Assembly (NCBI GenBank): GCA_045592945.1
Contig: JAZNVT010000025.1
Coordinates: 45,655-109,654, forward strand
From: Acutalibacteraceae bacterium
Lineage (GTDB): Bacteria; Bacillota; Clostridia; Oscillospirales; Acutalibacteraceae
DNA length: 64,000 nucleotides
Direction: 5' to 3'
Below, piece after piece: positions 3,641 to 47,924 of this stretch. How positions within the stretch are numbered: the first letter of the stretch is position 1; the number at the start of each line of letters is the position of its first letter. The notes under the pieces were generated by a model. That model was not told where the DNA came from, made no database searches, and worked only from the letters and a program-made list of their open reading frames with translations. A program made the position numbers and the translations under genes.

Positions 3641-3703
3641 ACAAATAAACAGGGGAAAACAACGGGCGAGGCGGTAGCCCATTCTGTAGGTAGTGGTGAA
3701 GAA

Positions 3704-7027: not shown

Positions 7028-8056
7028 TTATCTATGTAAATTTATATATTTAATAAGCTTATTCCAGTCCTCTCGGCTGAAATAGTGAAGACCTTTTCTC
7101 ATATGGTAGCCTATATCACCCTCAAAAAACATATCGTTGATTTCGGGGTATCTGTTTTCATATTTAAAGCCGTTTTTAAAAGCAGGGCTTGCGGCAACGC
7201 AGGAAAGCATTTCTGAACGGGGGTCTGCCCATAAATCCTCGGATGCACTGCCGATAACCGCGTGTCTTGGGGCAATTGAAGCTATAAGATAATGCTGGTC
7301 AAAGGGCATAGCCGATTCATTATCTCTGTATTTATTATAATTTTCGCAAAACCAGAAGGGGAATCTGTCGGTGATTTCTTTTACAGTTTCACCACGAGTC
7401 CAACGGGCGAGAGAAGCACCTGAGCAGCCTGAATCGTTTGAGTATGCGAATTTAAATCTTTCGTCAAACGCGCCTGCAACGAGGGCGGTTTTACCAAGCC
7501 TTGAATGACCGCAAACTGTACCGCAGTCAATAAGAAGCTTGTCGGTAAGGGTTTGAGCATAGTCCATAACTCGTGACGCAGCCCAAGCCCACATTGCAAT
7601 TTTGCCTGCGTCGGTAGAGCTTCTTTTTCCGTCGGGGAAAAGAATGCCTGCAAAGCCGTTTGTAAAGTCGTCGCCATCAGAGGTTATATCGTTATAGTAC
7701 ACTGAAAAAACTGCGAAGCCGTTATCAATAATTTCTTCCGTAGGCATATATCTGTCGGGGTTTAAATCTCTGAAATTAACGTGAATAAAGAAAGGGTGCT
7801 TTTCATTGTCGGTAGGTAAATTTGCAAAAAACGGGAAAGAGAATTCTTTGCCGTTTACAACGCATTTTGCAGTAACCCTGTTGCAAACCGCTTTTCCTGC
7901 GCAAAATTTAGGTATAACCTCTTCCTCAACCTCAAAAGAAATGCTTTCAGGCTTTGGTGGCATATAGCCGTAAATTTCTTCCTGTAAAATTTTAAGCATC
8001 TCTTCACGGGGTAAAAGAGGGGGTAAATTTAATTCATCAAGTATTTTTAAAAGCAT
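7028..8056 (-). CDS. Putative carbohydrate esterase (CE15 glucuronoyl esterase-like)
   Basis: GHSRLGKTAL resembles the G-C-S-R-x-G nucleophile motif of CE15. No signal peptide seen. Confidence 0.55.
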   Translation of the reverse strand: MLLKILDELNLPPLLPREEMLKILQEEIYGYMPPKPESISFEVEEEVIPKFCAGKAVCNRVTAKCVVNGKEFSFPFFANLPTDNEKHPFFIHVNFRDLNPDRYMPTEEIIDNGFAVFSVYYNDITSDGDDFTNGFAGILFPDGKRSSTDAGKIAMWAWAASRVMDYAQTLTDKLLIDCGTVCGHSRLGKTALVAGAFDERFKFAYSNDSGCSGASLARWTRGETVKEITDRFPFWFCENYNKYRDNESAMPFDQHYLIASIAPRHAVIGSASEDLWADPRSEMLSCVAASPAFKNGFKYENRYPEINDMFFEGDIGYHMRKGLHYFSREDWNKLIKYINLHR

Positions 8057-8104
8057 ATTATCAGCTCCTTTAAAAAGGTTATACCATATTTAAAATAAAA
8101 GAGC

Positions 8105-16964: not shown

Positions 16965-17111
16965 GCAAGGCAAAGCCTTGCAAAATACTTCTTCACTATT
17001 CACTATTACTTATTACCTTCCCAAAATCCGAGTATATAAGAGAAAAGCGAAGAATGAATAGTGAAGAGTGAAAAAGTAAAAATCCCCGTACTATCGTACG
17101 AGGATTTTTGG
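16965..17111. repeat. Tail-type module of the modular repeat family (copy S1)
   Basis: GCAAGGC-aaa-GCCTTGC hairpin, then the CTTCTTCACTATTCACTATTAC tract, its imperfect inverse GAAGAATGAATAGTGAAGAG, and the AAAAATCCCCGTAC-tatc-GTACGAGGATTTTT hairpin. Direct repeat of 24020-24162. Confidence 0.8.
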
Positions 17112-19931: not shown

Positions 19932-19946
19932 TCGGTGGTGATAACA

Positions 19947-21803: not shown

Positions 21804-21809
21804 ATAATA

Positions 21810-22679
21810 ATGTCGAACATCATTTCGCCTGAAATAAAAGAAGCATCAAAACTTACAAGCGAAGAATGGAAGGAATGGACAAAAACAGTTTGGAGCATAG
21901 CCAATATCAGTGATGGTATTCACCCTGCTGTTTATCCTCCCGAAATTCCTTATCGCTTGATAAGAATGTTTTCCTTTGTTGGAGAAACCGTACTCGACCC
22001 TTTTTCAGGTATGGCAACTACAGGAAGAGTGGCTCTCCAAAATAATCGATCGTATATAGGATTTGAAACAAATCCTGTATACCACAGCGAATCCTTGAAT
22101 CGATTAGGAGAATCTATTTTAACCGAAAATAGTTATAATTGTCGTTACGAAGTATCAAATTCAAGTTCGTGTAATATGACTAATGTGGAGAATGATAGCA
22201 TAGGAATTGTAGTTACGTCTCCTCCATATTGGAACAAGGCAGATTATGGTGAATACGATGGAAATATCGGTGGTTTTGAATACTATGATGATTTTTTAGT
22301 TGAACTCAAAAAGGTTTTTGATGAATGTTATCGCGTATTAAAGCCCGGAAGAAAAATGTGTGTTGTTACTGCAAACGTTAATCAAAACACAAAAGAACAC
22401 GGTCTTCTCACAATCCCGTTAGCTACCGATATGACCAAAGTTCTTCAGTCCTGCGGATTCGCTCTTATTAATCAAATTATTTGGAACAAAGATGGTACTG
22501 GAGGAAGATGGGGATCTGCGAATTCTCAGAGGCCTATTTTTGGTAGTTATCCCTATCCACCTAATTTCCTTTTTAAGAATGTCAATGAGTATATTATCAT
22601 CGTTCAGAAACCCGATCCAAAAAAGAAGAATTCGAAAGCTCCTTCTTACAACGAATTGTTCAGAAATGAACCTATATAA
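21810..22679 (+). CDS. N4/N6 DNA methyltransferase with apparently swapped motif order
   Basis: LDPFSGMATTGRVA..IGFE (AdoMet motif, aa 62-86) precedes VVTSPPYW (catalytic motif, aa 134-141), followed by RVLKPGRK and IIWNK. Confidence 0.8.
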   Translation: MSNIISPEIKEASKLTSEEWKEWTKTVWSIANISDGIHPAVYPPEIPYRLIRMFSFVGETVLDPFSGMATTGRVALQNNRSYIGFETNPVYHSESLNRLGESILTENSYNCRYEVSNSSSCNMTNVENDSIGIVVTSPPYWNKADYGEYDGNIGGFEYYDDFLVELKKVFDECYRVLKPGRKMCVVTANVNQNTKEHGLLTIPLATDMTKVLQSCGFALINQIIWNKDGTGGRWGSANSQRPIFGSYPYPPNFLFKNVNEYIIIVQKPDPKKKNSKAPSYNELFRNEPI

Positions 22680-24019: not shown

Positions 24020-24162
24020 CCGCCGTTGGCGGAGTGGACTTCTTCACTATTCACTATTACTTATTACTTCCCAAAAATCCGAGTATTCAAAGAACAAGTG
24101 AAGAGTGAAGAGGTAATAGTGAAAAAGTAAAAATCCCCGTACTATCGTACGAGGATTTTTGG
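24020..24162. repeat. Tail-type module of the modular repeat family (copy S2), includes the tRNA operon terminator hairpin
   Basis: CCGCC-gtt-GGCGG hairpin, the CTTCTTCACTATTCACTATTAC tract and its inverse, and the AAAAATCCCCGTAC..GTACGAGGATTTTT hairpin. Direct repeat of 16965-17111. Confidence 0.8.
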
Positions 24163-24244
24163 TGGGAGCGGGTGGATTCGAACCACCGAAGGCGGTGCCA
24201 ACAGATTTACAGTCTGCCCCCTTTGGCCACTCGGGAACACTCCC
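24160..24244 (-). tRNA. tRNA-Tyr (anticodon GTA), class II with long variable arm, encoded CCA
   Basis: The reverse complement GGGAGTGTTCCCGAGTGG..GACTGTAAATC..GGTGGTTCGAATCCACCCGCTCCCACCA folds as a cloverleaf. Confidence 0.9.
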
Positions 24245-24263
24245 ATGTTCACTATTAAAAAAA

Positions 24264-24339
24264 TGGAGCTGGTGGACGGACTCGAACCCCCGACCTGCTG
24301 ATTACAAATCAGCTGCTCTACCAACTGAGCTACACCAGC
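24264..24339 (-). tRNA. tRNA-Thr (anticodon TGT), encoded CCA
   Basis: Reverse complement GCTGGTGTAGCTCAGTTGGTAGAGCAGCTGATTTGTAATCAGCAGGTCGGGGGTTCGAGTCCGTCCACCAGCTCCA. One G-G mismatch in the T stem. Confidence 0.85.
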
Positions 24340-33156: not shown

Positions 33157-34803
<1,647 letters not shown>

Positions 34804-34861
34804 GCTCACCTCGTTCGTAAGATAATAGATAAAAGATAATATTGAATAGATAATAGAAAAG

Positions 34862-34905
34862 GGTCTGCGACGCGATTATAATGCTTCGCAGACCTGTTGT
34901 TTTTC
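34862..34905 (+). terminator. Probable groEL terminator, also the degenerate left arm of repeat copy A
   Basis: GGTCTGCGA..TCGCAGACC stem followed by TGTTGTTTTT. The CGATTATAATGCTTCGCA part matches the arm module in inverted orientation. Confidence 0.5.
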
Positions 34906-34934
34906 TGTAAACAAAATTGTAGCGAAGCCTATCA

Positions 34935-35400
34935 CTCTTTTTTTACGCAGTAAAAAAGGAGGGGGGACCGACGCCGTCAGGCGTTGGTGGGTGGTACCCG
35001 ACGTGAGTCCTCGAACGTCGTGAAACCTTAGGTTTCATTGACACAAACTTACCTAAAACAATAAATTTAGTTAGTACACAGTAAGGAACGTGGCTCTGCC
35101 CGTTCCGCTATGGGAGCAATTCATTTGCCGTTATACGTTATTGTATGGGTGAGTTTATTTACACGGAACACCCAGAGGGTGTTCCCTACAGTTGTTCTAT
35201 TATAGTTTTTTGTAATGGTTAGTTTCTAACATTTGAATCTAACGATTCAACTACGCTCCTTTGTCGCGTAGGGTACCACCCACCGCCCCGATTCAGTAAT
35301 AAATAAAGGATAGTATATTCACACGAAATATACTATCCTTTAATTTTAAATTTATTGAAGGTCGGTCCCCCCTCCTTTTTACCTGCGGTAAAAAAGAGGG
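34935..35400. repeat. Core of modular repeat / candidate large structured RNA, copy A
   Basis: Homologous to 39176-39710. Closed by a ~35-nt helix (34935-34969 / 35364-35400) and a perfect 14-bp helix (34986-34999 / 35271-35284). Multiple internal hairpins. No credible ORF. Confidence 0.8.
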
Positions 35401-35670
35401 ATAAATAGTTTTTCTATCCGTCTAAACCTAAGACGTAAGAGAACTACCCACCACCAAAAGCAAAGCTTTTGGTCCCCCTCCCTATTTGCTAACGCAAACA
35501 GGGATGAAAAGCTTCGCAAAATTTTAACTTATGCTCCTTGCGAAGCTCTATAATCGGCACGAAGTGCCCCTTCACTCCTAACTCCTCACTCCTAACTCCT
35601 CACTTAATAGTGAACGAAGCCTCTGGCATCTGGCATCTTCATTTGCCACTTGCCACTTCCAATTTGCCAT
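35401..35670. repeat. Arm module of the repeat family, copy A right arm
   Basis: Homologous to 39711-40002 and, inverted, to 38841-39175. Ends one nt before the rsmA stop codon. Confidence 0.8.
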
Positions 35671-35671
35671 T

Positions 35672-36523
35672 TTATTTTAAAGCTTCCGCAAGCCTTGCAA
35701 AGTCCTCCATTGTAAGCTTTTCGGCTCTTATAGTTTTTTCGAGCCCTGCCTTGCTGATAGCCTCGGCAACCTTATCCTTACCTATACCTAACCCTGCACT
35801 TATAGAGTTTTCGGCTGTTTTTCTTCTTTGTGAGAATGCCGCTTTTACAGTTTTAAAGAAAAATTCTTCATTTTCCACCTTAACGGGTGGCTCTTTTCTT
35901 ATTGTAAGGCGAATAACCTCACTATTTACTTTAGGAGGCGGTAAAAAAGAATCGCTTGGCACGAAGAAAAGCTCTTCGCTTTCGGCATAATAATTTACCG
36001 CAACGGTAACGGCACCGCCGTCACGGCTACCCACCTCGGCACAAAGGCGGTCAGCCGCCTCCTTTTGCACCATAACGGTTATTGCCTTCAAGGGCAAACG
36101 GCTTTCTAAAAGCATCATAATTATCGGTGAAGTAATATAATAAGGAAGGTTTGCACACACTACAACGTCCATTCCCTTGCATTTTTCCTCAATAATCTGA
36201 GGTAAATTTGCCTTCATTACGTCTTCATTTATAATTTCAACGTTGTTAAAATCCGCAAGAGTTTCCTTTAAGACGGGCAAAAGGCGTCTGTCAAGCTCGA
36301 AGCTTAAAACCTTACCCGCTCTTTTAGCAAGCTCGGCAGTTAAAACGCCTACACCTGGGCCTATTTCAATAGCACAGGTATTTTCATTAAGAAAAGCCGC
36401 CTCCGCCATAGCGGGACAAACCTCAGGGTCTACAAGGAAATTCTGACCTAACCCCTTATTAAAGGTAACTCCGTGCTTACCCATTACTGATTTTATAACG
36501 TTTATATCGGAAAGATTTTTCAT
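35672..36523 (-). CDS. rsmA: 16S rRNA (adenine1518/1519-N6)-dimethyltransferase RsmA/KsgA
   Basis: GQNFLVD and EIGPGVGVLT motifs. Start at MKNLSDINVIK. Confidence 0.9.
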   Translation of the reverse strand: MKNLSDINVIKSVMGKHGVTFNKGLGQNFLVDPEVCPAMAEAAFLNENTCAIEIGPGVGVLTAELAKRAGKVLSFELDRRLLPVLKETLADFNNVEIINEDVMKANLPQIIEEKCKGMDVVVCANLPYYITSPIIMMLLESRLPLKAITVMVQKEAADRLCAEVGSRDGGAVTVAVNYYAESEELFFVPSDSFLPPPKVNSEVIRLTIRKEPPVKVENEEFFFKTVKAAFSQRRKTAENSISAGLGIGKDKVAEAISKAGLEKTIRAEKLTMEDFARLAEALK

Positions 36524-36638
36524 TTTTACCCCCGAAAAGTATTGAAAATAAATATAGATTAAGATATATTTAATTATACAAGTTATAAATTGGTTGTCAA
36601 TGAAATTTCTTATTTTGATAACCTGAAGGAGATTACCT

Positions 36639-38840
36639 ATGAAAACTATCAAAGATGCAAGATTCATACGTCAGGCTGCTGATTTCGGTGAAATCAGACC
36701 CGTTTTCAAGAAGGTTGTTTGGTTAGATAAGCCCGTTAGAAAAGCATCTCTTTTCTGCTCCGCTTTAGGCTATTACGAGGCATACCTTAACAACCAAAGA
36801 GTAGGAAAATTTATTTTCGCTCCCGGTTGGACTACCTACGGTAAAAGACTTCAGTATCAGGAATATAACGTTACAAATCTTCTTGAAGAGTGCAATACTC
36901 TTGATATTGCTCTGGGTAACGGTATGCGTTTTCACGGTAACCCACACGAAAATTACGAAAGCATAACCTCAAGAGAGGATGCTCTTATTGCTGCACTCGT
37001 TATTGAATATGAGGACGGCACAGAGGATTTTATCCCCACTGACTCTAGCTGGAAATGCAGTAAATCAAATATCGTTTATTCTCACGTTTATAACGGTGAA
37101 ACCGTTGATTTTACTATGAATACGGACGAGGAATTCCCCGTTAAAGAGCTTCCTGATATCAATATGGATATCCTTATTGAAACCGAGGGTGAGGAAGTAA
37201 GAGAAATGACTCGCCTTAATGCAATAGAGCTTATCAAAACTCCCAAGGGCGAAACAGTTATTGACTTCGGTCAGAATCTTACGGGCTACGTTGAATGGAG
37301 CGTGCCTGCAAAAAAGGGTAAGGAATTCAAGCTTTATCACGCAGAAATTCTTGATAAAGACGGTAACTTCTACACCGAAAACTTAAGAGGTGCGAAAGCA
37401 CAGGTTTCGGTTATTTCTGACGGTGTTGAAAGAGTATATAAGCCTCATTTTTCCTTCCAGGGCTTCCGTTATATTAAGCTTGAGGGCTTCGAGGAGGAAG
37501 ATATTAATTTAGAAAGCTTCACCGCAGTTGTTGTTTTCTCGGATATGAAGAGAATCGGCTATTTTGCTTGCGGTAACGACCTTGTTCAACAGCTTTATGA
37601 AAATATCGTCTGGGGTCTCAGAGGCAACTTCCTTGACGTGCCTACAGACTGTCCTCAGAGAGATGAAAGGCTTGGTTGGACGGGTGATGCTCAGGTTTTT
37701 GCCCGCACCGCTTCTACTACATACAGAACAGATAAATTCTTCAGAAAATGGTTGCACGACCTTGCTGCCGACCAACGTGAAAACGGTGCTATTACAGACG
37801 TTTGTCCCGACCTTCAACGTTGGGAATCTTACGGCTCTTCTGCCTGGGCAGATGCCTCTGTTATCGTGCCTTATCAGGTTTATGCCACATACGGTGATAA
37901 AACCATAATTGAAGAACAATTTGAGTCAATGAAAAAATGGATTGACTTTATGGAAAATAACGGTACCGAAAAAGGTCTTTTTGATGCTCACGAGCTTCAT
38001 TTCGGCGACTGGCTTTCTCTTGATGCGGGTAACGAAGCAACAGGCGGTCTTACCGATAAAAATCTTATAGGCTCCGCCTACCTTGCTTACTCAAACTCTC
38101 TCTTTATAAAAATGGGTAAGGCTATCGGCAAGGATATGTCTTACTACGAGGATCTTTATGAGCATTCAATAAAAGCCTATAGAAAGAAATTCCTTAATAC
38201 AGGTAAAACCGAGCATGAAACCCAGACCTCAAACGTACTTGCTCTTCACTTTAACCTTACCGATAACAGAGAGCGAGAGGCAGAAAAGCTTGTAAAAGAT
38301 ATTGAAGCCTGCGGTCACCTTAAAACAGGCTTCGTAGGTACACCCTATCTTCTTCATACTCTTACCGAAATCGGCAGGGCTGACCTTGCATACAAGCTTC
38401 TTTTAAGAAAAGAATTCCCCTCATGGCTTTTCCCCGTTACAAGAGGCTCAACAACAATGTGGGAACGCTGGGACGGTATGAAGGAGGACGGCTCCTTCGC
38501 AACTCCCGAAATGAACTCCTTTAACCATTACGCCTACGGCTCAGTTGGTGACTGGCTTTATAAGACAGTTGCAGGTATTGACTACGATATCAACGAGCCC
38601 GGCTACAAGCATATAATCTTCAGACCTCTTCCCTGCAAGGCTCTCGGCTACGCTAAAGCAAGAATTATCACCGACAACGGCGATATTATTTCAGGCTGGG
38701 AATATACAGGCAAGGGCAACGAATGTAAATTTACCTTTACTATCCCCAACGGCTGTCACGCTACTCTTTACCTTGATAACGAAGAGTACGAATTCGAAAG
38801 CGGTACTTATGATACTGTTTTTGAGTATGAGGGAATATAA
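36639..38840 (+). CDS. Alpha-L-rhamnosidase, GH78
   Basis: FRYIKLEG and DCPQRDERLGWTGD hallmark blocks. No signal peptide. Confidence 0.85.
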   Translation: MKTIKDARFIRQAADFGEIRPVFKKVVWLDKPVRKASLFCSALGYYEAYLNNQRVGKFIFAPGWTTYGKRLQYQEYNVTNLLEECNTLDIALGNGMRFHGNPHENYESITSREDALIAALVIEYEDGTEDFIPTDSSWKCSKSNIVYSHVYNGETVDFTMNTDEEFPVKELPDINMDILIETEGEEVREMTRLNAIELIKTPKGETVIDFGQNLTGYVEWSVPAKKGKEFKLYHAEILDKDGNFYTENLRGAKAQVSVISDGVERVYKPHFSFQGFRYIKLEGFEEEDINLESFTAVVVFSDMKRIGYFACGNDLVQQLYENIVWGLRGNFLDVPTDCPQRDERLGWTGDAQVFARTASTTYRTDKFFRKWLHDLAADQRENGAITDVCPDLQRWESYGSSAWADASVIVPYQVYATYGDKTIIEEQFESMKKWIDFMENNGTEKGLFDAHELHFGDWLSLDAGNEATGGLTDKNLIGSAYLAYSNSLFIKMGKAIGKDMSYYEDLYEHSIKAYRKKFLNTGKTEHETQTSNVLALHFNLTDNREREAEKLVKDIEACGHLKTGFVGTPYLLHTLTEIGRADLAYKLLLRKEFPSWLFPVTRGSTTMWERWDGMKEDGSFATPEMNSFNHYAYGSVGDWLYKTVAGIDYDINEPGYKHIIFRPLPCKALGYAKARIITDNGDIISGWEYTGKGNECKFTFTIPNGCHATLYLDNEEYEFESGTYDTVFEYEGI

Positions 38841-39175
38841 AAAAATGGCAAATTGCAAATGGGAAATGGCAAATGAAGATGCCGGATGCCAGAGGCGAGC
38901 ACACGATTTAGTGAGGAGTGTGGAGTTAGGAGTTAGGAGTGAAGGGGCACTTCGTGCCGATTATAGAGCTTCGCAAGAAGTAAAACTTAAATATTTGCGA
39001 TAGCCTTGCCTCCCTGTGCGAAGCATAGGGAGGGGGACCGTTCTTTGATATATTTTAAAAGTTGACAGACAGTATATTTCGCGTGATATACTGTCTGTTA
39101 TTTGTTTATTAAAGCGGAACGGTGGTGGGTAGTTCTCTTACGTCTTAGGTTTAGACGGATAGAAAAACCATTTAT
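38841..39175. repeat. Arm module, copy B left arm (inverted orientation)
   Basis: Reverse complement aligns with 35401-35670 and 39711-40002. Starts directly after the GH78 stop codon. Confidence 0.8.
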
Positions 39176-39710
39176 CCCTCTTTTTTTACGCAGTAAAAAA
39201 GGAGGGGGGACCAAAAGCTTGTCTTTTGGTGGGTGATACCCGACGTGAGACCCCGAACGTCGTGAAACCGTAGGTTTCATTGACACAAACTTATCTTTTC
39301 AAATAAAGTTTGGTAGTAATTCGTTTACCGTTATACGTTATTGTATGGGTGAGTTTATTTACGTGGTACACCCAGAGGGATTTTCCTTACAGTTGTTCTT
39401 TTTTGGTATCTCATAACTGTAAGGTTATTACCTTTGAATCTAACGATTCAACTACGCTCCTTTGTCGCGTAGGGTACCACCCACCGCCCCGACTCAGTAA
39501 CAAATAAAGGATAGTATATTCACACGAAATATACTATCCTTTAATTTTAAATTTATTGAAGGTCGGTCAACCGGTTACAATATAGTCGTCTTGCTCGTTA
39601 TTCACTTCGCAATACTCCTTATTGTGCCCAGAGCTTATTGTTCGCTTCATCTACCACTGGCAGCGCTCACAAACGCTCCCCCTCTTTTTTACCTACGGTA
39701 AAAAAGAGGG
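39176..39710. repeat. Core of modular repeat / candidate large structured RNA, copy B (carries a ~108-nt insertion at 39569-39676)
   Basis: Aligns with 34935-35400. Helices 39176-39212 / 39677-39710 and 39228-39241 / 39472-39485. Confidence 0.8.
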
Positions 39711-40002
39711 ATAAATAGTTCTTCTATCCGTCTAAACCTAAGACGTAAAAGAACTACCCACCACCAAAAGCAAAGCTTTTGGTCCCCCTCCCTATTTTCT
39801 GCGAAAACAGGGATGAAAAGCTTCGCAAAATTTTAACTTATACTCCTTGCGAAGCTTTACAATCGGCACGAAGTGCCCCTTCACTCCTCACTCCACACTC
39901 CTCACTTAATAGTGAACGAAGCCTCTGGCATCGGGTATCTGGCATCTATATAATTGCCAACGCAGTTCCGAAATTTGCCACTTGCCACTTGCAATTTCCA
40001 AC
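39711..40002. repeat. Arm module, copy B right arm
   Basis: Aligns with 35401-35670. Inverted with respect to 38841-39175. Confidence 0.8.
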
Positions 40003-40003
40003 T

Positions 40004-40038
40004 AAAAAAGAGATGACGTTTAGTCATCTCTTTTTTTT
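40004..40038. terminator. Bidirectional terminator
   Basis: A6-GAGATGAC-gttta-GTCATCTC-T8. Confidence 0.7.
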
Positions 40039-40041
40039 AGC

Positions 40042-40971
40042 TTATTTCAAAATCTTTTCGCCGTCGAATACGATAACACCGTGACCGCTACCTGTTTTAC
40101 CACCGCTTAAAACGTGGTCCTTAAAGGCTTTTCTCAAGGAGTTGTCGGTGGGCCATTTTTTAGGTGACATATAGCCGTATTTACCCATAATTCTCCAGGC
40201 ATCGTTAAATTTATCTTTAGCGTTGCTTTCGATAATTTCAAAGTCGTCCATAAATTTAAGAACGTTTGATTTGGGATTTAAGAAATCTCTGTGACCCTCG
40301 TAAAGAAGCCATGAGCCACATTCAAAAATCATAAGACCGTCTTCTCTGCGGCAATCCTTAAAGAATTCGTAAGCTCTCTTATATGAATCAAGTCTTACGT
40401 CGTCAGTAAGAGAAACGCCTGAAGAGGGGATATGGAAGCCTACAGTTTTATCACCTTTTTTTATTGTGATACCGCAAGAGGAGGTGTAATCATCTCTGCC
40501 GAAGGTTGAGTATTCAAACTGGAATCTGCCGAGGGCAAAACGGTTAAGCTTGTAGAAGCCGTCAAACCAACCACCAACAAAGGTACCGTATTTTTCTTTA
40601 CAGTCAACACATTCGTCGAATTTGTATTTTAAGTCCTGCATTGTATCCCAGAAAAGCTCGTCACTTAAGTTAGCCTCTTTGTAAAGGTTATGCATTCTTT
40701 CGCTACAAACCAAAAGGAAAACAAAGTGAAGAGAGTATTTGTTTACCTTATGCCAAAATGCAATTTTTGAAAGCTCATCCATTGCTTTGCCGAAATCGTG
40801 AGCTTCGGGGTACATATATGTATTAATAACCTCGTCAAATCTCTTTGAAAACAAATTGCTTTTTTCTATTTTGTTTGCGATTTTCTCAAAAAGCTCTTTT
40901 GCTTCCTCGGGAAGACCCAATCTTTTTTCAACCTCTAAAAAATGTTCGTTGCAATATTTCATTGTAGCCAT
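40042..40971 (-). CDS. Hypothetical protein (possibly DUF5596 / GNAT-like C-terminal domain family)
   Basis: 309-aa soluble ORF. Family assignment from memory is weak. Confidence 0.4.
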   Translation of the reverse strand: MATMKYCNEHFLEVEKRLGLPEEAKELFEKIANKIEKSNLFSKRFDEVINTYMYPEAHDFGKAMDELSKIAFWHKVNKYSLHFVFLLVCSERMHNLYKEANLSDELFWDTMQDLKYKFDECVDCKEKYGTFVGGWFDGFYKLNRFALGRFQFEYSTFGRDDYTSSCGITIKKGDKTVGFHIPSSGVSLTDDVRLDSYKRAYEFFKDCRREDGLMIFECGSWLLYEGHRDFLNPKSNVLKFMDDFEIIESNAKDKFNDAWRIMGKYGYMSPKKWPTDNSLRKAFKDHVLSGGKTGSGHGVIVFDGEKILK

Positions 40972-40985
40972 ACTTCCTTTATAAA

Positions 40986-42344
40986 TTAATTCTTAAGACT
41001 GTTAAGGGGAGCTGGGATTCTGCCTCCTCTTGAAATAAAATCAAAGCTGCTTTCCTTGTGGACGGGCATAACGGGTGCCGTGCCTAAAAGACCGCCCATT
41101 TCAATTGAATCACCAACTGTTTTGTTAGGTGCGGGGATAATTCTTACAGCAGTTGTTTTATTGTTTATCATACCAATAGCGGCTTCGTCGGCAATGATTG
41201 CAGAAATTGTTTCTGCAGAGGTATCACCGGGAACAGCTATCATATCAAGACCAACAGAGCATACGCAGGTCATAGCCTCTAATTTATCAAGTGTAAGAGT
41301 GCCTTTTTCTGCGGCGGCAATCATACCCTCATCCTCTGAAACGGGGATAAATGCGCCTGAAAGACCGCCAACGCTTGAGGAAGCCATAACGCCTCCTTTT
41401 TTAACTGCATCGTTAAGAAGCGCAAGTGCTGCGGTTGTACCGTGAGTACCGCAAACCTCAACACCGATTTCCTCAAGAATTCTTGCAACAGAGTCACCGG
41501 TTGCGGGTGTGGGTGCAAGGCTCAAGTCAACTATGCCGAATTCTGCACCAAGGCGTTTTGAAGCCTCGCAAGCAATAAGCTGACCCATTCTTGTAATCTT
41601 AAATGCAGTTTTCTTTATGGTTTCAGCAACAACGTCAAAGGGCTCGCCCTTGATACCCTTAAGTGCGTTATAAACAACGCCGGGACCTGAAACGCCAACG
41701 TTTATAGCACATTCAGGCTCGCCTACACCGTGGAAGGCGCCCGCCATAAAGGGATTATCTTCAACTGCGTTACAGAATACAACAAGCTTTGCACAGCCGA
41801 AGCCGTCACGGTCTTTAGTTATATCTGCAGTTTTCTTTATGGTTTCACCCATAAGCTTTACGGCATCCATATTTATACCCGCCCTTGTAGAGCCAACGTT
41901 TACTGAAGAGCAAACGAAATCAGTACAAGCGAGTGCCTCGGGGATGGAATTAATAAGACGTCTGTCACCGATAGTAAAGCCTTTTTGAACAAGGGCAGAG
42001 AAACCGCCTATAAAGTTCACACCGCATTCCTTTGCCGCTTTATCAAGTGCTTTTGCGAAAATAGTGTAATCCTCGGTTTCACAGCTTTCAGCCGCAATAG
42101 CAATAGGTGTTACAGAGATTCGTTTGTTAATAATCGGAATACCCATCTCTCGTTCAAGGTCTTCACCTGTTTTAACGAGATTCTCTGCATATTTTGTGAT
42201 TTTATCATACATCTTCTGCGCACAGATTACAGGGTCGGGATGAGCGCAGTTTCTTAAAGAAATACCCATAGTTATAGTACGGATATCAAGATGCTGATTA
42301 TCAATCATATTTAGAGTTTCAATTATTTCACGCTGATTGATCAT
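40986..42344 (-). CDS. UPF0210 (DUF711, PFL-like) family protein
   Basis: N terminus [26 protein letters not shown]. Classic pairing with an upstream ACT protein. Confidence 0.8.
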
Positions 42345-42352
42345 ATTACACC

Positions 42353-42622
42353 TCAGATTTTGTGCATAGCATCAAAAATTTCTTCTTTTTGTATACGGAT
42401 GCTAACACCTAAACGCTCGCCCTCTTTGTCGAGTGCTTCAACAATCTGAGCGTAGTCAACGTTAGCATTTTTGATATCAACAAGCATATTCATTGTGAAC
42501 ATATTCTCAAGAACAGTCTGGCTGATATCAAGGATGTTTACGTTTATTTTTTCAAGGGCTACACAAACACCGGCTATAATGCCGACCTTGTCTTTACCTA
42601 CAACGGTTATAATAGCATTCAT
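42353..42622 (-). CDS. ACT domain protein, UPF0237 family
   Basis: [28 protein letters not shown]. Confidence 0.8.
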
Positions 42623-42744
42623 ATTAAGTACCTCTCTAACCAATATTTAATTCATTTTATCACAAGTAGAAATAGATTACAATAAAAAACAAAAAGAAAA
42701 ACGACTGTTCTGTGAAGAACAGTCGTAATTTTTATAGATTTTTA

Positions 42745-44244
42745 TCAGTTAAGAGCATCCCAAAGAATCTGGAAGAATTCCATTGAACCGAGAAGTCTTA
42801 CGAGAGTATCGGGGATGAAGCTTAAAATCCACCAGAAATCAGTGAAATCCTTTGCTTCAGCTTCGGGAGCTTCCTCATACTCAAGAAGCATAGCCTGAGT
42901 ATAAGCGATACCGCCGACACCGAAAACCTCAGCTCTTACGTAGCTGCCGATATATTTTGAATAATCGTCAAGGTCAATAGAATCGCCGTAAGCAATTGTT
43001 TCACCGTCTGCAATCCAACGAACACAAAGACCGTCTGTTACGTTAAGAGTGATTGTATCGTCACCGTCGTCAACGATTACGGAGTTAATAACGGGAGCAT
43101 CAACGTCAAGAGGAGCTTCGTATTTTGCATCGTAATCTGTTTTCTGTCTTTCAAGGATATCGTTAGCAATAGCAACTGCTTCTGCGTTACCGTTAGCATT
43201 TTCGAGAAGATAGTTTGCAATCTCTTCAAGCTCTTCGTGGTTGCCTAAGCATTTACTTGAGGGGAAGAAAGCACCTGTTTTCATTGATGTATAAAGAGCA
43301 TCAACTGTCTGCTCAGGCATAAGCATTTCAGTATAGCCTGTGTAAGCAGCGTCAGTGCTGTGAGCGTCACTTGTTGCAATTGCGAAAACGTTTCTGCCTG
43401 TGGGAGCAAGGTTCATAAGAAGGATGTCCCAAAGCTTTCTGTCAAAACGTGTTCTTGAGTCGCCCTTACTGTTGATATCAATACCTAAGCAAGAATCATA
43501 TGTAGCAAGGAGGCTTGTGAATTTGTCAATGTAATATTTATAGAATGTATCGTTATAATCGTAAGCATCAGCTGTGCATTCTTCGTCACGGGCATTGGTG
43601 TATTCGCCGGGGTGGTTAATAACTGAAAGACCGCCCATTTCGTGAACTGCTTTAATGGGTGTTTCATAGTCGCTTGTACCGCCGAGAACACCGTTACCGT
43701 AATCAGCAAACCATGTGTTTACGTGAGCGTTGTTAAGTGAGCTGGGGTTCTGTTCGTTTGCGTAAGGAACGCGAAGCATTTTGTGGTCAGGAGTTGTTTC
43801 CTGGAAATAGTAATCGCCACCGTTTTCAGTAACAACCTGATAGGGCACACCTTCGAAGGTAAGACCGCCTGATGCCTCAAGAGCAACCATTTCTGTATTA
43901 GGGTTTCTCATATCAACGAAAACCTTAAGGGCGGGGATAACCTGCTGCTCTGTCCAGCTGTAGCTTGTAAGACCGTGGTCAGAGGTTGCGTAAATATCGA
44001 AGCCGTAGTCGTAGTTGATTTCAATCATATCCTTAAGAGAGCTACGACCGTCAGATGCGGTTGTATGAGTATGAAGGTCAGCCTTGTACTGATTCCAGGA
44101 CCAGTCAACGTCTGCATAAGGGCTTATGATTGTGTAGTCACGTTCGGCACCTGCAGCATAAACGCCTGTTGAAAGAACACCTGCAAGAAGTGCAACAACA
44201 CAAATAACGGAGATAAATTTTTTAATTTTTCTCATTGTAGTCAC
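42745..44244 (-). CDS. Secreted PHP-domain (polymerase/histidinol phosphatase-like) metal-dependent phosphoesterase
   Basis: Signal peptide, then DLHTHTTASDG and ATSDH. Confidence 0.7.
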   Translation of the reverse strand: MTTMRKIKKFISVICVVALLAGVLSTGVYAAGAERDYTIISPYADVDWSWNQYKADLHTHTTASDGRSSLKDMIEINYDYGFDIYATSDHGLTSYSWTEQQVIPALKVFVDMRNPNTEMVALEASGGLTFEGVPYQVVTENGGDYYFQETTPDHKMLRVPYANEQNPSSLNNAHVNTWFADYGNGVLGGTSDYETPIKAVHEMGGLSVINHPGEYTNARDEECTADAYDYNDTFYKYYIDKFTSLLATYDSCLGIDINSKGDSRTRFDRKLWDILLMNLAPTGRNVFAIATSDAHSTDAAYTGYTEMLMPEQTVDALYTSMKTGAFFPSSKCLGNHEELEEIANYLLENANGNAEAVAIANDILERQKTDYDAKYEAPLDVDAPVINSVIVDDGDDTITLNVTDGLCVRWIADGETIAYGDSIDLDDYSKYIGSYVRAEVFGVGGIAYTQAMLLEYEEAPEAEAKDFTDFWWILSFIPDTLVRLLGSMEFFQILWDALN

Positions 44245-44265
44245 CTTTCTTTATTTTTGAATTTA

Positions 44266-45705
44266 TTATTTAGTTTTTAAAAATTCTTTCGGGTTTTTCA
44301 TTTGAGCAATAGCTTCCTCACGGGTGATTTTGCCGTTGTTTGCTTCTGTCATAAGCTGAACGTCGTGGTCAGATAATCTGTAAAGCATCCAACAAATAGC
44401 ACCGAGAGCAACACCGATTGCGGGTACCATTATGAAGATGAACCATAAGCCTTCAAGTGTTTCGGGAGTCTGAGTAATACCAAGCTCCTTAAGCTGCTCG
44501 AAGTTTTCTGCTGCAGAAACGTCCTTCCAACCGATAACACCAAGAAGGAAGAGTGAAAGAGCAGATGAAACAGCGCCTGTAAGCTTAACCATAAAGGTCT
44601 GAATAGCGAAGGTGATACCCTTTGCCTCAATACCTGTTTTGAATTTACCGTATTCTGCGCAGTCGGGTGTGAACATAAATACCATAACGCCCATAACGCC
44701 CTGAGGAATAGCACGGAGTACGCAAAGCACGATAAAGAGAACCATATTGCTGTAGCCGATGAGCCACATAACAATACTGAGGGCAACCTGAAGCACAGCA
44801 CAAGTAAGATAAATCTTCATCTTGTCGTACTTTGCAACGAACTTGGGAACAAGAGCTGCGAATACGAGCATAGGTAATGCTGAAAGCACCATAACTACCA
44901 TACTGAACATTGAGTTGTTGAAAAGGTAGAAGGAAACGAAAAGATTAAGTGCATTCATTATGTTCAATGAGCTGTTGAAGAAGTAACCGAAGTAGTAAAG
45001 AAGAAGATTCTTGTTTGAGAAAAGATATTTAAACATCTTTCTGATTGTGAAGCTTTCGTCAACCTCACCGCCGCAACGCTCAACACCGTATTTGCAGATG
45101 GGATACATTGTAGCAATAGCACCGATAGCAACAACGATTGAAACGATGCTATAAGAAAGACCAACGCCTTCACCAACAAGAATTGTTGCGATAACAGTTG
45201 AAATACCTGAGCCTAAACCGCCCCAGATACTCTTGTAGGACTGTAAAGCAGTTCTTTCATCAACTCTTTCAGTCATTGCGGTGACCATACCGTAAATCGG
45301 CACATCGCAAAGAGTATAAGCAGTATCCCAAAGCATATATGTAATTGCATACCAAGCTAATTTAAAGGCTTCGCTGCCGTCTTTAGGCATTGAGAAGAGC
45401 AATACAGTTGAAAGGGGAATTGCGAAAAGAGAAATCTTTAACCAAGGGATGAACTTTTTACCGTTTTTAAAACGCACCTTGTCAAATATCGCACCGAAGA
45501 TTGCATCGTTGACAGCATCCCAGATTTTAATAACTAAAGTAATACCTGCCGCTTTTGTAACGTCAAGCCCCTGGAAAAGTAAAGCCGCTGTTAAGAATGA
45601 CGTTACAAGAGTGTAAATCATATTCTGACCGCAGAAATAAACGTAATAGCTTTTACGCTCCTTGTTGGTGGTCTGCCACAAGGGATTCTTATTTGGTTTT
45701 GCCAA
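44266..45705 (-). CDS. GPH-family glycoside/pentoside/hexuronide:cation symporter (MFS)
   Basis: 479 aa, 12 TM. WDAVNDAIFGAIFDK block typical of MelB/GPH. Confidence 0.75.
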   Translation of the reverse strand: MAKPNKNPLWQTTNKERKSYYVYFCGQNMIYTLVTSFLTAALLFQGLDVTKAAGITLVIKIWDAVNDAIFGAIFDKVRFKNGKKFIPWLKISLFAIPLSTVLLFSMPKDGSEAFKLAWYAITYMLWDTAYTLCDVPIYGMVTAMTERVDERTALQSYKSIWGGLGSGISTVIATILVGEGVGLSYSIVSIVVAIGAIATMYPICKYGVERCGGEVDESFTIRKMFKYLFSNKNLLLYYFGYFFNSSLNIMNALNLFVSFYLFNNSMFSMVVMVLSALPMLVFAALVPKFVAKYDKMKIYLTCAVLQVALSIVMWLIGYSNMVLFIVLCVLRAIPQGVMGVMVFMFTPDCAEYGKFKTGIEAKGITFAIQTFMVKLTGAVSSALSLFLLGVIGWKDVSAAENFEQLKELGITQTPETLEGLWFIFIMVPAIGVALGAICWMLYRLSDHDVQLMTEANNGKITREEAIAQMKNPKEFLKTK

Positions 45706-45849
45706 AACATCATCTCCAATTCGTTGGTTACTTGAAATGTGAAGCCACTACCACACATAATAAGTTAATATATATTGTAATACTTTGAAAAAGTAATTAC
45801 AAGTATCAAGTTTAATGAAAAAATAAAAGGATTTATGTGCATAAAGCAA

Positions 45850-45887
45850 AAAAATTGCCGTCAGATTTTTCTGACAGCAATTTTTTA
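45850..45887. terminator. Bidirectional terminator
   Basis: ATTGCCGTCAG..CTGACAGCAAT with flanking A and T runs. Confidence 0.6.
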
Positions 45888-45897
45888 TAAAATCTAA

Positions 45898-46071
45898 TTA
45901 TTTATCTTCTTTTGTCTTTGGGCGCGAGCCTGCTTTGTTAAGGATAGTAACACTGAGAATTATAACACCAACAACAATGAAAATACCAACCATACCTGCA
46001 AGTGAGCAAAGGAGAGCTTCGCCTAAAAATTCTGTTGAGAAATTCAACATGCCAAAAATTTTATCAAACAT
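45898..46071 (-). CDS. Small membrane subunit, OadG-like (not in the ORF track)
   Basis: 57 aa, MFDKIFGMLNFSTEFLGEALLCSLAGMVGIFIVVGVIILSVTILNKAGSRPKTKEDK. Lies 21 nt downstream of the beta-subunit gene. Confidence 0.55.
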   Translation of the reverse strand: MFDKIFGMLNFSTEFLGEALLCSLAGMVGIFIVVGVIILSVTILNKAGSRPKTKEDK

Positions 46072-46092
46072 AAATTAAAACTCCTTTCTCAA

Positions 46093-47250
46093 TTAACCGA
46101 AGAATTTCAAAATCATACCACCGGCAATAACGGAGGCAACCTGACCTGAAACGTTAACACCTGTTGCGTGCATAAGAAGGAAGTTCTGGTTGTCCTCTTC
46201 AAGACCAAGCTTGTGAACAACACGTGATGACATGGGGAATGCAGAGATACCCGCAGCACCAATCATGGGGTTGAATTTCTTTCCTTCGGGGAGGAAAAGG
46301 TTTAAGAATTTTGCGAAAAGCACACCGCCTGCAGTATCGAAAATAAATGCTACAAGACCAAGGCCGAGAATGAGAGCGGTTTCGATTGTAAGGAAAGCCT
46401 CTGCATTCATATTTCTTGCAACTGTGATACCGAGAAGAATTGTAACAAGGTTTGCGAGAACCTTCTGTGCAGTTTCTGAAAGTGAGTCAAGAACGCCACA
46501 TTCTCTGATAAGGTTACCGAACATAAGGAAACCGATAAGAACTGCTGACTGAGGTGATACGATACCTGCAATAATTGAAACGATAATGGGGAAAAGAATT
46601 CTTGTTCTTTTTGAAACTGCTTTGCCCTCGTATTTCATACGAATCTTACGTTCCTTTTTAGTTGTAAGAAGCTTGATAACGGGGGGCTGAACGATAGGAA
46701 CAAGAGCCATATAAGAATATGCGGCAACGATAATAGCACCGATGTACTGTGAATTAAGTGCAGTAGCAACGAAGATTGATGTGGGACCGTCTGCGGCACC
46801 GATAATAGCGATTGACGCAGCCTCGTTGATGGGGAAGAAAAGAGATGCAACAGTAAGAGTAAAGAAAATACCAAACTGTGCGGCTGCACCGAAAATCATA
46901 AGCTTCGGGTTTGAGAGAAGCGGACCAAAGTCAATCATCGCACCGATACCGATGAATAAAAGCAAGGGGAAAAGCTCATTAGCAACACCTGCATTATAGA
47001 GGATTTCAATTGCACCATGCTCTGAAATAACGCCTTCGAAAAGTGCGAGAGGTAAGTTTACAAGAATTGTACCAAAGCCCATAGGTAAGAGGAGTGTAGG
47101 CTCCATATCCTTTGCAATAGCAAGGTAAATAAGAAGGCCGCCTATTGCCCACATTATAAGCATCGGAATAACCTCTGAGGTAAAATCCATTCCTAAAACA
47201 GCATCAAAAATACTAAATATTTTTGAACCTAAATCGGTTACAACGTCCAT
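46093..47250 (-). CDS. Sodium ion-translocating decarboxylase beta subunit (OadB/GcdB/MmdB family)
   Basis: Start MDVVTDLG. Polytopic; LLLPMGFG and GAADGPT blocks. Confidence 0.8.
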   Translation of the reverse strand: MDVVTDLGSKIFSIFDAVLGMDFTSEVIPMLIMWAIGGLLIYLAIAKDMEPTLLLPMGFGTILVNLPLALFEGVISEHGAIEILYNAGVANELFPLLLFIGIGAMIDFGPLLSNPKLMIFGAAAQFGIFFTLTVASLFFPINEAASIAIIGAADGPTSIFVATALNSQYIGAIIVAAYSYMALVPIVQPPVIKLLTTKKERKIRMKYEGKAVSKRTRILFPIIVSIIAGIVSPQSAVLIGFLMFGNLIRECGVLDSLSETAQKVLANLVTILLGITVARNMNAEAFLTIETALILGLGLVAFIFDTAGGVLFAKFLNLFLPEGKKFNPMIGAAGISAFPMSSRVVHKLGLEEDNQNFLLMHATGVNVSGQVASVIAGGMILKFFG

Positions 47251-47310
47251 ATTTTTCCTTCTTTCATTTTTTGTTAGTTTTTGCTTTGATTTTATCTTTA
47301 CCGCGAAAAA

Positions 47311-47339
47311 TTGACAACTTAAAACAGTTGTGTTATTCT
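47311..47339 (+). promoter_or_regulatory. Possible bioY promoter with overlapping small palindrome
   Basis: TTGACA, 17-nt spacer, TATTCT. A CAACT..AGTTG inverted repeat sits in the spacer. Confidence 0.4.
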
Positions 47340-47357
47340 TCAACGGGGTGAAAAGAT

Positions 47358-47924
47358 TTGAAGCGTACAAGAAGTGTTAACATACCTTTAAATAGCAAAT
47401 TAAAGGATGTTGTTCTTATATCACTTTTTTCCGCAGTTATTGCGGTATGCTCGTTAATATGTATCCCGTTTACCGTACCCTTTACAATGCAGCTTTTCGG
47501 AGTTTTTTGTTCTTTTTACCTTTTAGGTGGTAAAAAGGGGTCTCTTTCAGTTTTACTGTATATTCTTATAGGCGTGGTAGGCTTACCTGTTTTTGCAGGC
47601 TTCAGGGGTGGATTCGGTAGCTTGTTTGACGCTACCGGTGGATTTATAACGGGCTTTGTATTTTCCGGCTTAGCGTATTGGCTTTCAACGAAAGTGTTAA
47701 AAAGAAATAAATACGTAAAAGAAATTTCTTTGTTGATATCATTGCCGGTTTGCTATATCTTTGGAGCAGGTTATTTTGCTCTTTTTTATAGCGAAGGAGA
47801 GCTTTTGAAAAGCTTTTCATCTGCAATAGTAGCTTGCGTATTGCCTTTTATAATACCCGACCTGTTAAAGCTTGCTTTAGCAATAGCCGTTTGCCGTAAA
47901 ATCGAAAAATACAAAATATTTTAA
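47358..47924 (+). CDS. bioY: Biotin transporter BioY
   Basis: 188 aa, 5-6 TM. PFTMQLFGVF and GLPVFAGF..GG blocks. TTG start after GGGGTGA. Confidence 0.75.
   Translation: MKRTRSVNIPLNSKLKDVVLISLFSAVIAVCSLICIPFTVPFTMQLFGVFCSFYLLGGKKGSLSVLLYILIGVVGLPVFAGFRGGFGSLFDATGGFITGFVFSGLAYWLSTKVLKRNKYVKEISLLISLPVCYIFGAGYFALFYSEGELLKSFSSAIVACVLPFIIPDLLKLALAIAVCRKIEKYKIF

Follow-up and report, generated by a model that had tools for sequence, protein, structure and literature searches.

Copy B is a 1.16-kb intergenic element that occupies positions 38841–40002 of a 64-kb window, the stretch of 64,000 nucleotides (nt) of contig JAZNVT010000025.1 (Acutalibacteraceae bacterium, assembly GCA_045592945.1) analysed here. 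It probably belongs to a new family of intergenic repeats, mosaic and palindromic in make-up and similar to miniature transposable elements with inverted repeats (MITEs), BOX and BIME elements, in a clade of uncultured gut Acutalibacteraceae. The copy consists of a 538-nt core (39173–39710) between two arms of ~300 nt in inverted orientation. The family is repeated, modular and polymorphic, and the two arms of copy B have not coevolved.

We infer the mode of spread of the family, its role in termination and the route of a translocation. Copy B comprises three nested modules, a BOX-like core and two arm modules in opposite orientation. Cores carry a promoter-like site and zero to four tandem units of ~133 nt between their ends, with a two-strand terminator-like hairpin in the right end, and each arm is a chain of small hairpins followed by 7-nt arrays that reach as far as the neighbouring gene's stop codon. 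The family would be kept and reshuffled at the DNA level, in that whole modules come and go, flip, are duplicated in tandem or pass from one copy to another. Such reshuffling probably proceeds through recombination or gene conversion among dispersed copies together with palindrome-driven rearrangement, and an enzyme acting in trans may also take part. Most copies sit downstream of genes, frequently in the space between two convergent ones, and would do little harm there; their hairpins would serve as the nearest terminator-like structures for the flanking genes.

Layout of copies A and B

The layout was checked by reading positions 34700–40200, with a repeat finder, and by BLAST of each copy against the whole window, which contains two copies only, A and B. 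Copy B has the following features.

38841–39172, + strand: left arm, the reverse complement of the right-arm module (39711–40002; also 35401–35672 in copy A)
38843–38875, + strand: left-arm 7-nt array, (AAATGGC)n
38877–38890, + strand: left-arm 7-nt array, two units of GATGCC[A/G]
38910–38942, + strand: left-arm 7-nt array, (AGTGAGG)n
38946–38958, + strand: left-arm hairpin Ha
39065–39098, + strand: large left-arm hairpin with a T-rich tail, terminator-like for GH78
39173–39710, + strand: core B, on the plan of core A, with a different hpX (39213–39227) and a 42-nt deletion that removes the unit hairpin H1
39280–39309, + strand: promoter-like site, TTGACA, 18 nt, TAAAGT
39569–39677, + strand: unstructured 109-nt insert, absent from core A, that splits S1′ at the site GGTC^CCCCC
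39711–40002, + strand: right arm, 92–96% identical to right arm A (direct-repeat families D2, D3, D7 and D11)
40004–40038, both strands: terminator-like palindrome with A6 and T8 runs at its flanks, which closes copy B

The inverted arrangement of the arms is evident by several methods. The repeat finder pairs 39121–39208 with 39678–39765 (88 nt, 90% complementary, the longest ungapped match) and 38917–39000 with 39823–39906 (84 nt, 87% complementary), in addition to the shorter pairs 38902–38933/39883–39914, 38850–38874/39973–39997 and 38877–38896/39921–39940. BLAST of the left against the right arm gives E-values of 2e-33 and 1.6e-28, and a three-way alignment of the reverse-complemented left arm of B, the right arm of B and the right arm of A has 304 common columns, 248 of them identical in all three. 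Pairing between the arms of B is broken twice, by a ~100-nt extra segment in the left arm that holds hairpin 39065–39098 and by a ~30-nt insert in the right arm at ~39941–39970. An earlier note on this DNA had described copy B as a core flanked by ~300-bp inverted arms, with 38841–39175 as the reverse complement of 39711–40002 and of the arm in copy A, and these comparisons bear the description out.

Both outer edges lie where that note had placed them. The bidirectional terminator said to close the block is the palindrome at 40004–40038, which lies 3 nt from the stop codon of a GNAT-like gene (40042) and gives only weak terminator-type matches in Rfam. The copies also abut stop codons as described: the GH78 stop codon occupies 38838–38840 and left-arm homology begins 1–2 nt on, at 38841/38842, while the arm of copy A finishes at 35671/35672, 0–2 nt short of the rsmA stop codon (35672–35674).

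Copy A, at the other end of the pair formed by rsmA (− strand) and GH78 (+ strand; the pair spans 35672–38840 and is found elsewhere in the genomes of relatives), follows the same general plan.

34819–34929, + strand: left arm A, from Tandem Repeats Finder (TRF) and motif positions
34820–34857, + strand: (AGATAAT)n array of left arm A
34862–34894, + strand: hairpin GGTCTGCGA..TCGCAGACC, followed by a T-rich run
34922–34929, + strand: GCGAAGCC box, the end of left arm A
34930–35400, + strand: core A (inverted repeats I6 and I20; fold z = −15.8; aligned with 15 other copies)
34933–34969: S1 hairpin, the 5′ strand of the closing stem, CTCTTTTTTTAC-GCA-GTAAAAAAGGAG, running into GGGGGGACC
34970–34985: small hairpin hpX
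34986–34999: S2, GGTGGGTGGTACCC
34999–35037: hairpins L1 and L2
35038–35067, + strand: promoter-like site TTGACA-N18-TAAATT, from a promoter scan
~35079–35197: the single internal unit, ~120 nt, with hairpins H1 and H3
35233–35271: hairpins R2 and R1
35271–35284: S2′
35304–35342: hpY, a 39-nt hairpin of 16–17 bp, terminator-like on both strands by a terminator scan (counterpart in core B at 39505–39543)
35360–35400: S1′
35401–35672, + strand: right arm A, a linker and then a second, diverged block of S2′-like, hairpin and S1′-like parts (35444–35482)
35510–35547, + strand: hairpin Hb of right arm A
35556–35568, + strand: hairpin Ha of right arm A, followed by (ACTCCTA)n, (TCTGGCA)n and (CATTTGC)n arrays, which reach the rsmA stop

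The earlier note was right that copy A shares the layout of copy B, but the left arm that it took to be degenerate is a distinct arm subtype, which starts at 34819 and is conserved in other copies. Among the loci in other genomes and contigs, numbered L001–L027 (the window copies are winA and winB), this subtype also adjoins the cores of L002, L003 and L026 and, in shortened form, L012, at 86–91% identity. It has a GATTATA..GCTTCGCA box in common with the other arm type. Its hairpin at 34862–34894 is the terminator-like site closest to groEL, and the first one downstream of rsmA, on the − strand, is hpY of core A. TRF places period-7 arrays at 34820–34857, 35574–35604, 35622–35638, 35640–35672, 38843–38875, 38910–38942, 39881–39906 and 39975–39992.

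The left end of the core (S1-hpX-S2-L1-L2, ~125 nt) is an imperfect inverted repeat of the right end (R2-R1-S2′-hpY-S1′), with 34930–34972 and 35361–35403 88% complementary over 43 nt and 34986–35006 and 35264–35284 90% complementary over 21 nt. As a whole, the core thus forms a long palindrome whose centre is not palindromic. It folds well beyond shuffled sequence on both strands (z = −15.8 on + and −13.6 on −), and the left arm of B has a fold z of −5.9. The two cores differ at about 20% of positions outside a 59-nt block (35233–35291) that A and B share without a difference and that scarcely varies among the other copies containing it. The 109-nt insert of core B recurs at the same GGTC^CCCCC site with 98–99% identity in L005 (2746–2839), L016 (1505–1554) and L017 (1203–1252), where all three contigs stop within it. 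It has no inverted ends and no obvious duplication, and the idea that it is a small hairpin element was rejected, as it is unstructured (DNA fold z ~0).

Arms of this length could in principle pair within one RNA, and the earlier note had offered a very large hairpin-closed RNA as one reading of copy B. The arms are ~84% complementary over the 304 alignable positions, and the closing stem S1:S1′ would carry their pairing on into the core. Such an RNA is nevertheless most improbable. The right arms of B and A share 34 derived sites, against six shared by the two arms of B, and 29 of the 50 mismatches between the arms of B could form a wobble pair on neither strand. In copy A and in most other copies the two arms are of non-matching types, and arm modules exist without a core in other genomes (L018 and L020). 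The left arm of B also contains, upstream of the core, a terminator-like hairpin with a T-rich tail (39063–39100, + strand, in the terminator scan, which also returned 35304–35342 and 39505–39543 on both strands), so that the GH78 transcript would end before the core, and S1′ is broken by the 109-nt insert. A selected 300-bp RNA stem is unlikely because the arms of B are not mutual closest relatives and show no compensatory change. We therefore discarded a giant arm-to-arm hairpin under selection on the three-way comparison and the types of mismatch.

Strand comparisons also suit palindromes that act at the DNA level. Across ten copies, the difference in core fold energy between the + and − strands runs from −7 to +17 kcal/mol, with both signs represented. 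In the arms, the G-rich strand folds better by 16–27 kcal/mol; base composition accounts for this, as each strand has a z of −6 to −8 against dinucleotide-shuffled controls.

A dispersed, mosaic family and its turnover

The core recurs outside the window. An exact-match scan with a 21-mer from R1/S2′, over one genome per species, found 13 loci, a lower bound, in five metagenome-assembled genomes (MAGs): nine in the MAG 'Clostridia bacterium RGIG9001' and a single locus apiece in four Acutalibacteraceae MAGs. The element is thus a multi-copy repeat across genomes, although the window itself holds only the two copies. Most of the RGIG9001 loci lie less than 100 nt from a contig end, and one 8.6-kb contig carries a copy at either end, as expected of a dispersed repeat, which breaks short-read assemblies. 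Contigs of the window species (L015–L017, which encode an identical RsmA protein) likewise stop inside the element. Exact look-ups of the GH78 and GroEL sequences of the window returned no record. The family thus helps explain why MAGs of uncultured gut and rumen Clostridia are fragmented. In the other collections searched, the family is seldom seen or missing. A chimeric peptide translated from spurious open reading frames (ORFs) had only six matches in a collection of 5.8 billion protein sequences, and these led to four loci, L024–L027. A 20-mer from the 5′ part of the core gave a single chance match in JGI metagenomes (L014), unrelated on inspection, and viral contigs, plasmids and phages gave no match to the element.

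Copies differ from each other by whole modules. The number of tandem ~133-nt units per core is zero in L012, one in winA, L003 and L002, two in L025 and four in L024, and cores range from 290 to 900 nt within full composites of 0.85–1.16 kb. Five or six copies are truncated at the 5′ end, including L013, L009a, L004/L005 and L027. The hpX and hpY positions hold at least six unrelated small hairpins (GACGCC..GGCGTT, AAAAGC..CTTTT, ACACGC..GCGTG, ATTGCC..GGCAAT, GTGC..GCAC and the large hpY), and reverse-complementing hpX of copy B gives hpY of L012 exactly. The H1 hairpin has a flipped loop in L009a. In L025 and L027, the units are joined straight to an arm-type right end, and the conserved 3′ block (R2, R1 and S2′) is missing. 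The inverted layout itself recurs as a feature of the family: other copies, too, have purine-rich arrays on their left and pyrimidine-rich ones on their right.

Arm modules also occur in relatives that have no core in the 14–21 kb read around rsmA (L018–L020), in intergenic DNA and mostly past gene ends. The pieces include the arrays (TTTTGCA)n, (GCATTCC)n, (AGTGAGG)n and (AGTGAAA)n, solitary S1 hairpins, the GCGTCGCAGACC box and a truncated 5′ end of the core, and they lie at the following sites.

L018, 12033–12227: arm pieces
L018, 15415–15700: arm pieces
L018, 18400–18682: arm pieces
L020, 5616–5812: arm pieces
L020, 9001–9352: arm pieces

The module set is therefore far wider than the two window copies show.

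Comparison of orthologous loci shows that modules turn over rapidly. L016 and the window have rsmA coding sequences that are 98.9% identical, while the adjoining arms are only 90.9% identical; nearly all of the arm differences fall in a patch of ~70 nt in which the heptamer type and the Ha hairpin are replaced by those of another subtype. The rsmA-adjacent copy of L016 also has the 109-nt insert, which copy A of the window lacks. L003 and L004 are orthologous and share 94.9% identity across 5.8 kb, yet they differ in arm module content.

Presence and absence polymorphism is clearest around the rsmA–GH78 pair. L018–L020, found through RsmA homologues at 88–89% identity, have the gene order ABC-ABC-GH78-rsmA-(75 aa)-M23 peptidase with only a plain terminator of ~50 nt past GH78. 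The closest relative found, L021, was reached through its GNAT-like protein (92% identity) and is 86–90% identical to the window at the nucleotide level. It matches window positions 33550–34805 and 40041–47684, and the 5.2-kb block made up of copy A, rsmA, GH78 and copy B is absent; groEL is instead convergent with the GNAT-like gene across an unrelated 385-nt spacer. The earlier note had asked for such comparisons of orthologous loci, and they confirm the polymorphism. The L021 spacer (7681–8064) contains two copies of another repeat of ~150 nt, CCCACTCGACGTAT..GATGAAAAAATCACAAAC.., and a terminator hairpin related to hpY of the core.

In the window lineage, the rsmA–GH78 pair appears to have moved, been trimmed to within 2 nt of both stop codons, and been bracketed by two element copies in direct orientation. 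As the pair is located elsewhere in relatives, the repeats would be the substrate or the vehicle of this translocation, either through recombination between dispersed copies (excision and re-integration) or through movement resembling that of a composite transposon; both routes fit the data. In L002, a core with a left arm of the copy A type lies directly upstream of the M23 peptidase gene, the place beside rsmA in the ancestral order, which suggests that copy A may already have accompanied rsmA before the move. The repeats thus mark sites of gene-order change between close relatives and here bracket a relocated housekeeping pair.

An assembly error caused by the repeats could have produced the A–rsmA–GH78–B order, and the translocation would then not be real. 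The join between rsmA and groEL is without independent confirmation because the contigs of the same species (L015–L017) all end within the element. We give this explanation only a small chance, as the cores of A and B are ~80% alike with insertions and deletions, so that an assembler could tell them apart. Even if it were correct, L021 would have no family element between groEL and the GNAT-like gene, and the composite structure of copy B does not depend on the question.

The distribution of the family also invites comparison with a classical MITE, which would have arisen from an insertion sequence by deletion and be mobilised in trans by the transposase of that sequence, an enzyme that recognises the inverted core ends (~45–125 nt). 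The 43-nt and 21-nt inverted matches at the core ends, the multi-copy and patchy occurrence, and the polymorphism are all consistent with such an origin; L021 lacks the block, and near-conspecific assemblies differ in the 109-nt insert and the arm patch. The element is also non-coding, with no reading frame conserved between copies. We nevertheless regard a classical MITE as unlikely. Beyond the core the palindromy carries on, by way of the GCGAAGCC box, into the arms, searches of plasmids, phages and viral contigs gave no related sequence, the full composite exceeds the typical size of a MITE, and the searches for a transposase and for a target-site duplication described below gave nothing. 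The MITE-like foldback proposed in the earlier note therefore holds for the copy number, the long inverted repeats and the polymorphism, while no termini could be defined and neither a target-site duplication nor a transposase in the window or beside the copies was found; the label is right in spirit but not by definition.

Several of these points weigh against our own reading of a reshuffled mosaic repeat family as well. No transposase, integrase, recombinase or RAYT-type gene was found in the 64-kb window (ORFs of at least 150 aa, Pfam domains), nor was any found in the ORFs beside the copies of L001–L013. Inspection of winA, winB, L003, L012 and L026 found no flanking direct repeat and no sharp termini, and no terminus can be fixed because the palindromy extends on into the arms. 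With neither target-site duplications nor sharp termini found, the family is only putatively mobile. The A–rsmA–GH78–B order is that of the window assembly only and could be a repeat-induced misjoin. The comparison genomes are all fragmentary MAGs or short metagenome contigs, and this, together with the single exact-match scan, makes the copy numbers lower bounds. Finally, the constancy of the 59-nt block and of the promoter hexamers points to a sequence-specific function that purely selfish DNA would not explain.

Further observations concern individual loci. The four tandem units of L024 (1–640) are joined to their neighbours by an 11-bp stem, GTTCCTTACAG .. CTGTAAGGAAC, and the array has been annotated by a gene caller as a 147-aa protein (P0241). 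L009 (2500–3987) has two partial cores, inverted, around an acidic ORF of 133 aa (3445–3846) with no Pfam match, and one of the partial cores is truncated by a further long palindrome, TTGCTACACAAATCG...CGATTTGTGTAGCAA. In L004, the ~330 nt (1608–1935) between a tRNA gene (1524–1607) and a truncated core contain long hairpins and, on the minus strand, a tRNA-like 3′ end (GGGTTCAAGTCCCCACCA); this segment has no Rfam match at the gathering score.

The window also contains a second, unrelated repeat family, with two copies ~85–90% identical at 16985–17110 and 24035–24160. Each copy bears (TTCACTA)n at one side and (AGTGAAG)n at the opposite one, along with the terminator hairpin AAAAATCCCCGTACTATCGTACGAGGATTTTT, and the second copy abuts two tRNA genes (24163–24339). 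Adjacent DNA methyltransferase genes of the N6_Mtase/Eco57I type (622 aa) and the N6_N4_Mtase type (289 aa) occupy 19935–22679, with an opposite-strand ORF of 442 aa without a Pfam match beyond them; this is perhaps a restriction-modification locus.

Possible transcription of the core and possible roles of the arms

The core may also be a candidate small-RNA gene carried by the repeat, a possibility that we hold tentatively and that is compatible with a mosaic repeat family rather than opposed to it. The promoter-like site TTGACA-N18-TAAAGT would drive a + strand transcript of ~230–280 nt, longer where there are more units, that ends at hpY. The functional parts of this RNA would be its tandem units together with the invariant hairpin loop, CUCCUUUGU; they could, for instance, act like a sponge that takes up a protein or Shine-Dalgarno regions. 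The promoter is putative, being a match to the consensus only. It lies at the same place in both window copies, and its hexamers are unchanged in the eight copies that keep the 5′ part (from at least five assemblies), save that position 5 of the −10 hexamer is G or T, whereas the spacer is variable in its middle part. Downstream on the + strand lies a terminator-like hairpin whose tail is T-rich, the 59-nt block is conserved, and a few one-sided changes from G-C to G-U and two both-sided changes keep the predicted pairs. Promoters borne by MITEs and small RNAs derived from them occur in other bacteria (PMC10969869).

Several features argue against such a transcript. Promoter-like matches are common in the AT-rich DNA of this region (18 in 5.5 kb, against nine expected by chance), the −10 hexamer matches the consensus at only four of six positions, and the promoter is missing from five or six copies. 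The conserved 3′ block is absent from L025 and L027, and fold energy shows no strand preference. Covariation is sparse, with one or two compensatory pairs in alignments of six interiors and 14 units, as the aligned sequences are too closely related to carry more signal. S2′ would lie within the transcript, but its pairing partner S2 is upstream of the promoter. If the core is transcribed, its product would be a small RNA that varies between strains in copy number and in the number of internal units.

No Rfam family and no conserved reading frame accounts for the element. Rfam 15 at the gathering score, run on the whole window and five loci, returned tRNAs only, and for both copies at E-values up to 10 it gave chance-level matches that reach at most ~40% of the family gathering scores. 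Membership of a described structured RNA family was accordingly dismissed. Protein coding and a type I toxin were likewise set aside, since the small ORFs of the core are conserved in neither frame nor start codon. The 31-aa ORF at 35110–35205 has no Shine-Dalgarno sequence, has ATG only in copy A and TTG elsewhere, and is broken in frame in B, L002 and L003.

Some short matches to ribosomal motifs lie in the core. The loop CUCCUUUGU on the invariant hairpin resembles the anti-Shine-Dalgarno end of 16S rRNA. The strands of the closing stem (34933–34969 and 35360–35400; 39176–39212 and 39678–39710) carry a perfect Shine-Dalgarno-like run, AAAAAGGAGGGGGG. In core A the partner strand contains CCTCCTTT, identical to 8 nt of the 16S rRNA 3′ end, and in core B the counterpart is CCTCTTTT; the invariant R1 loop likewise reads CTCCTTTGT. 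Chance could account for these matches.

The arms raise a separate question, that of their relation to the adjoining genes. Judged from base composition, they might be gene-end insulators, with an outward strand that is C-rich and G-poor like a Rho loading site. An arm of this kind would stop outgoing or convergent read-through transcripts before they entered the neighbouring gene in antisense, and its inward-reading strand would give the mRNA of the neighbour stable 3′ hairpins. The C/G ratio of the outward strand is 2.0–2.9 in all three arms of the type (right arm A has 2.1 on its + strand, with 2.9 in its outer part); the window as a whole has 0.92. The purine-rich strand of the arrays reads in sense with the nearest gene end in 13 cases out of 14, a statistic that would follow from the palindromic layout of the element automatically, and in several loci the arrays start 0–8 nt past the stop codon. 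The same arm lies upstream of the start of a divergent gene in L002, a gene's own terminator precedes the arm in L003, and arms change fast between near-identical genomes, all of which make insulation a doubtful function for the arms. A related idea, that the arms are 3′ untranslated region modules tied to stop codons, was rejected because the layout explains the 13 of 14 cases and L002 and L003 are counterexamples.

The two ideas could be combined in a mobile small-RNA gene, in which a palindromic carrier spreads a promoter-to-terminator unit and the C-rich outward strands of the arms act as Rho-type insulators against antisense read-out. The RNA would have zero to four ~133-nt units and an invariant hairpin showing CUCCUUUGU, and it could titrate a protein or the ribosome-binding sites of mRNAs. 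This combination strikes us as speculative and rather improbable.

Comparison with known systems

The nearest architectural analogue is the BOX element of Streptococcus pneumoniae, which has the architecture boxA-boxBn-boxC. As in BOX, complementary end modules enclose a variable number of tandem units (zero to four here), and the elements are intergenic, multi-copy and strongly folding. Unlike BOX, the element is several times larger, belongs to a different phylum-level lineage, and has 7-nt arrays and a conserved promoter-like site; with such differences in host and size, sequence homology to BOX is not expected. BOX elements also cluster with RUP and SPRITE elements, insert into each other and carry terminator-like hairpins (PMC10969869).

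The REP, BIME and REPIN elements of Proteobacteria are similar in being mosaics of small palindromes past gene ends, often between convergent genes. Their inverted module pairs form long hairpins, and their module content varies by strain. REP units are 20–40 nt with a conserved 5′ GTAG and depend on a RAYT (Y1 transposase), whereas for the element described here no RAYT was found in the window or beside the copies. A GTAG precedes some of its hairpins (GTAGGGAACG..CGTTCC), while about half of the units have GTAA instead.

MITEs with regulatory content, such as the Correia elements (CREE) of Neisseria, ERIC and the QMITEs of Coxiella, share the inverted ends, the lack of an ORF, the multiple copies and the polymorphism, and they carry sigma-70-like promoters with possible small-RNA output, as the core may (PMC10969869). 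In contrast to these, the present element has no target-site duplication, sharp termini or parent insertion sequence that could be found, is much larger, and is nested in palindromic arms.

The STRR sequences of cyanobacteria are heptanucleotide tandem repeats. Like these, the TAACTGA repeats and other long simple-sequence repeats, the arrays of the element are short, intergenic 7-nt arrays of three to five copies, with several unit types per genome and a patchy phylogeny. In Beggiatoaceae, the TAACTGA repeats are placed immediately upstream of start codons, and 7-nt units are in excess among long simple-sequence repeats (PMC4679880). The arrays described here differ from TAACTGA repeats in forming the outer ends of a larger palindromic element, mostly past stop codons.

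The element resembles the large structured RNAs ROOL, GOLLD, OLE and HEARO in its size range and its very strong predicted folding (z ~ −15). It differs from them in having no Rfam match up to an E-value of 10, no strand preference, variation by whole modules and many truncated copies.

Taken together, the element passes as a member of none of these systems: it is 3–10 times larger, occurs in Oscillospirales, has no known enzyme partner, and combines their features in one nested palindrome. Mosaics in the style of BOX and BIME are best described in pneumococci and Proteobacteria, and the family extends them to Oscillospirales in a much larger form that incorporates heptanucleotide arrays.

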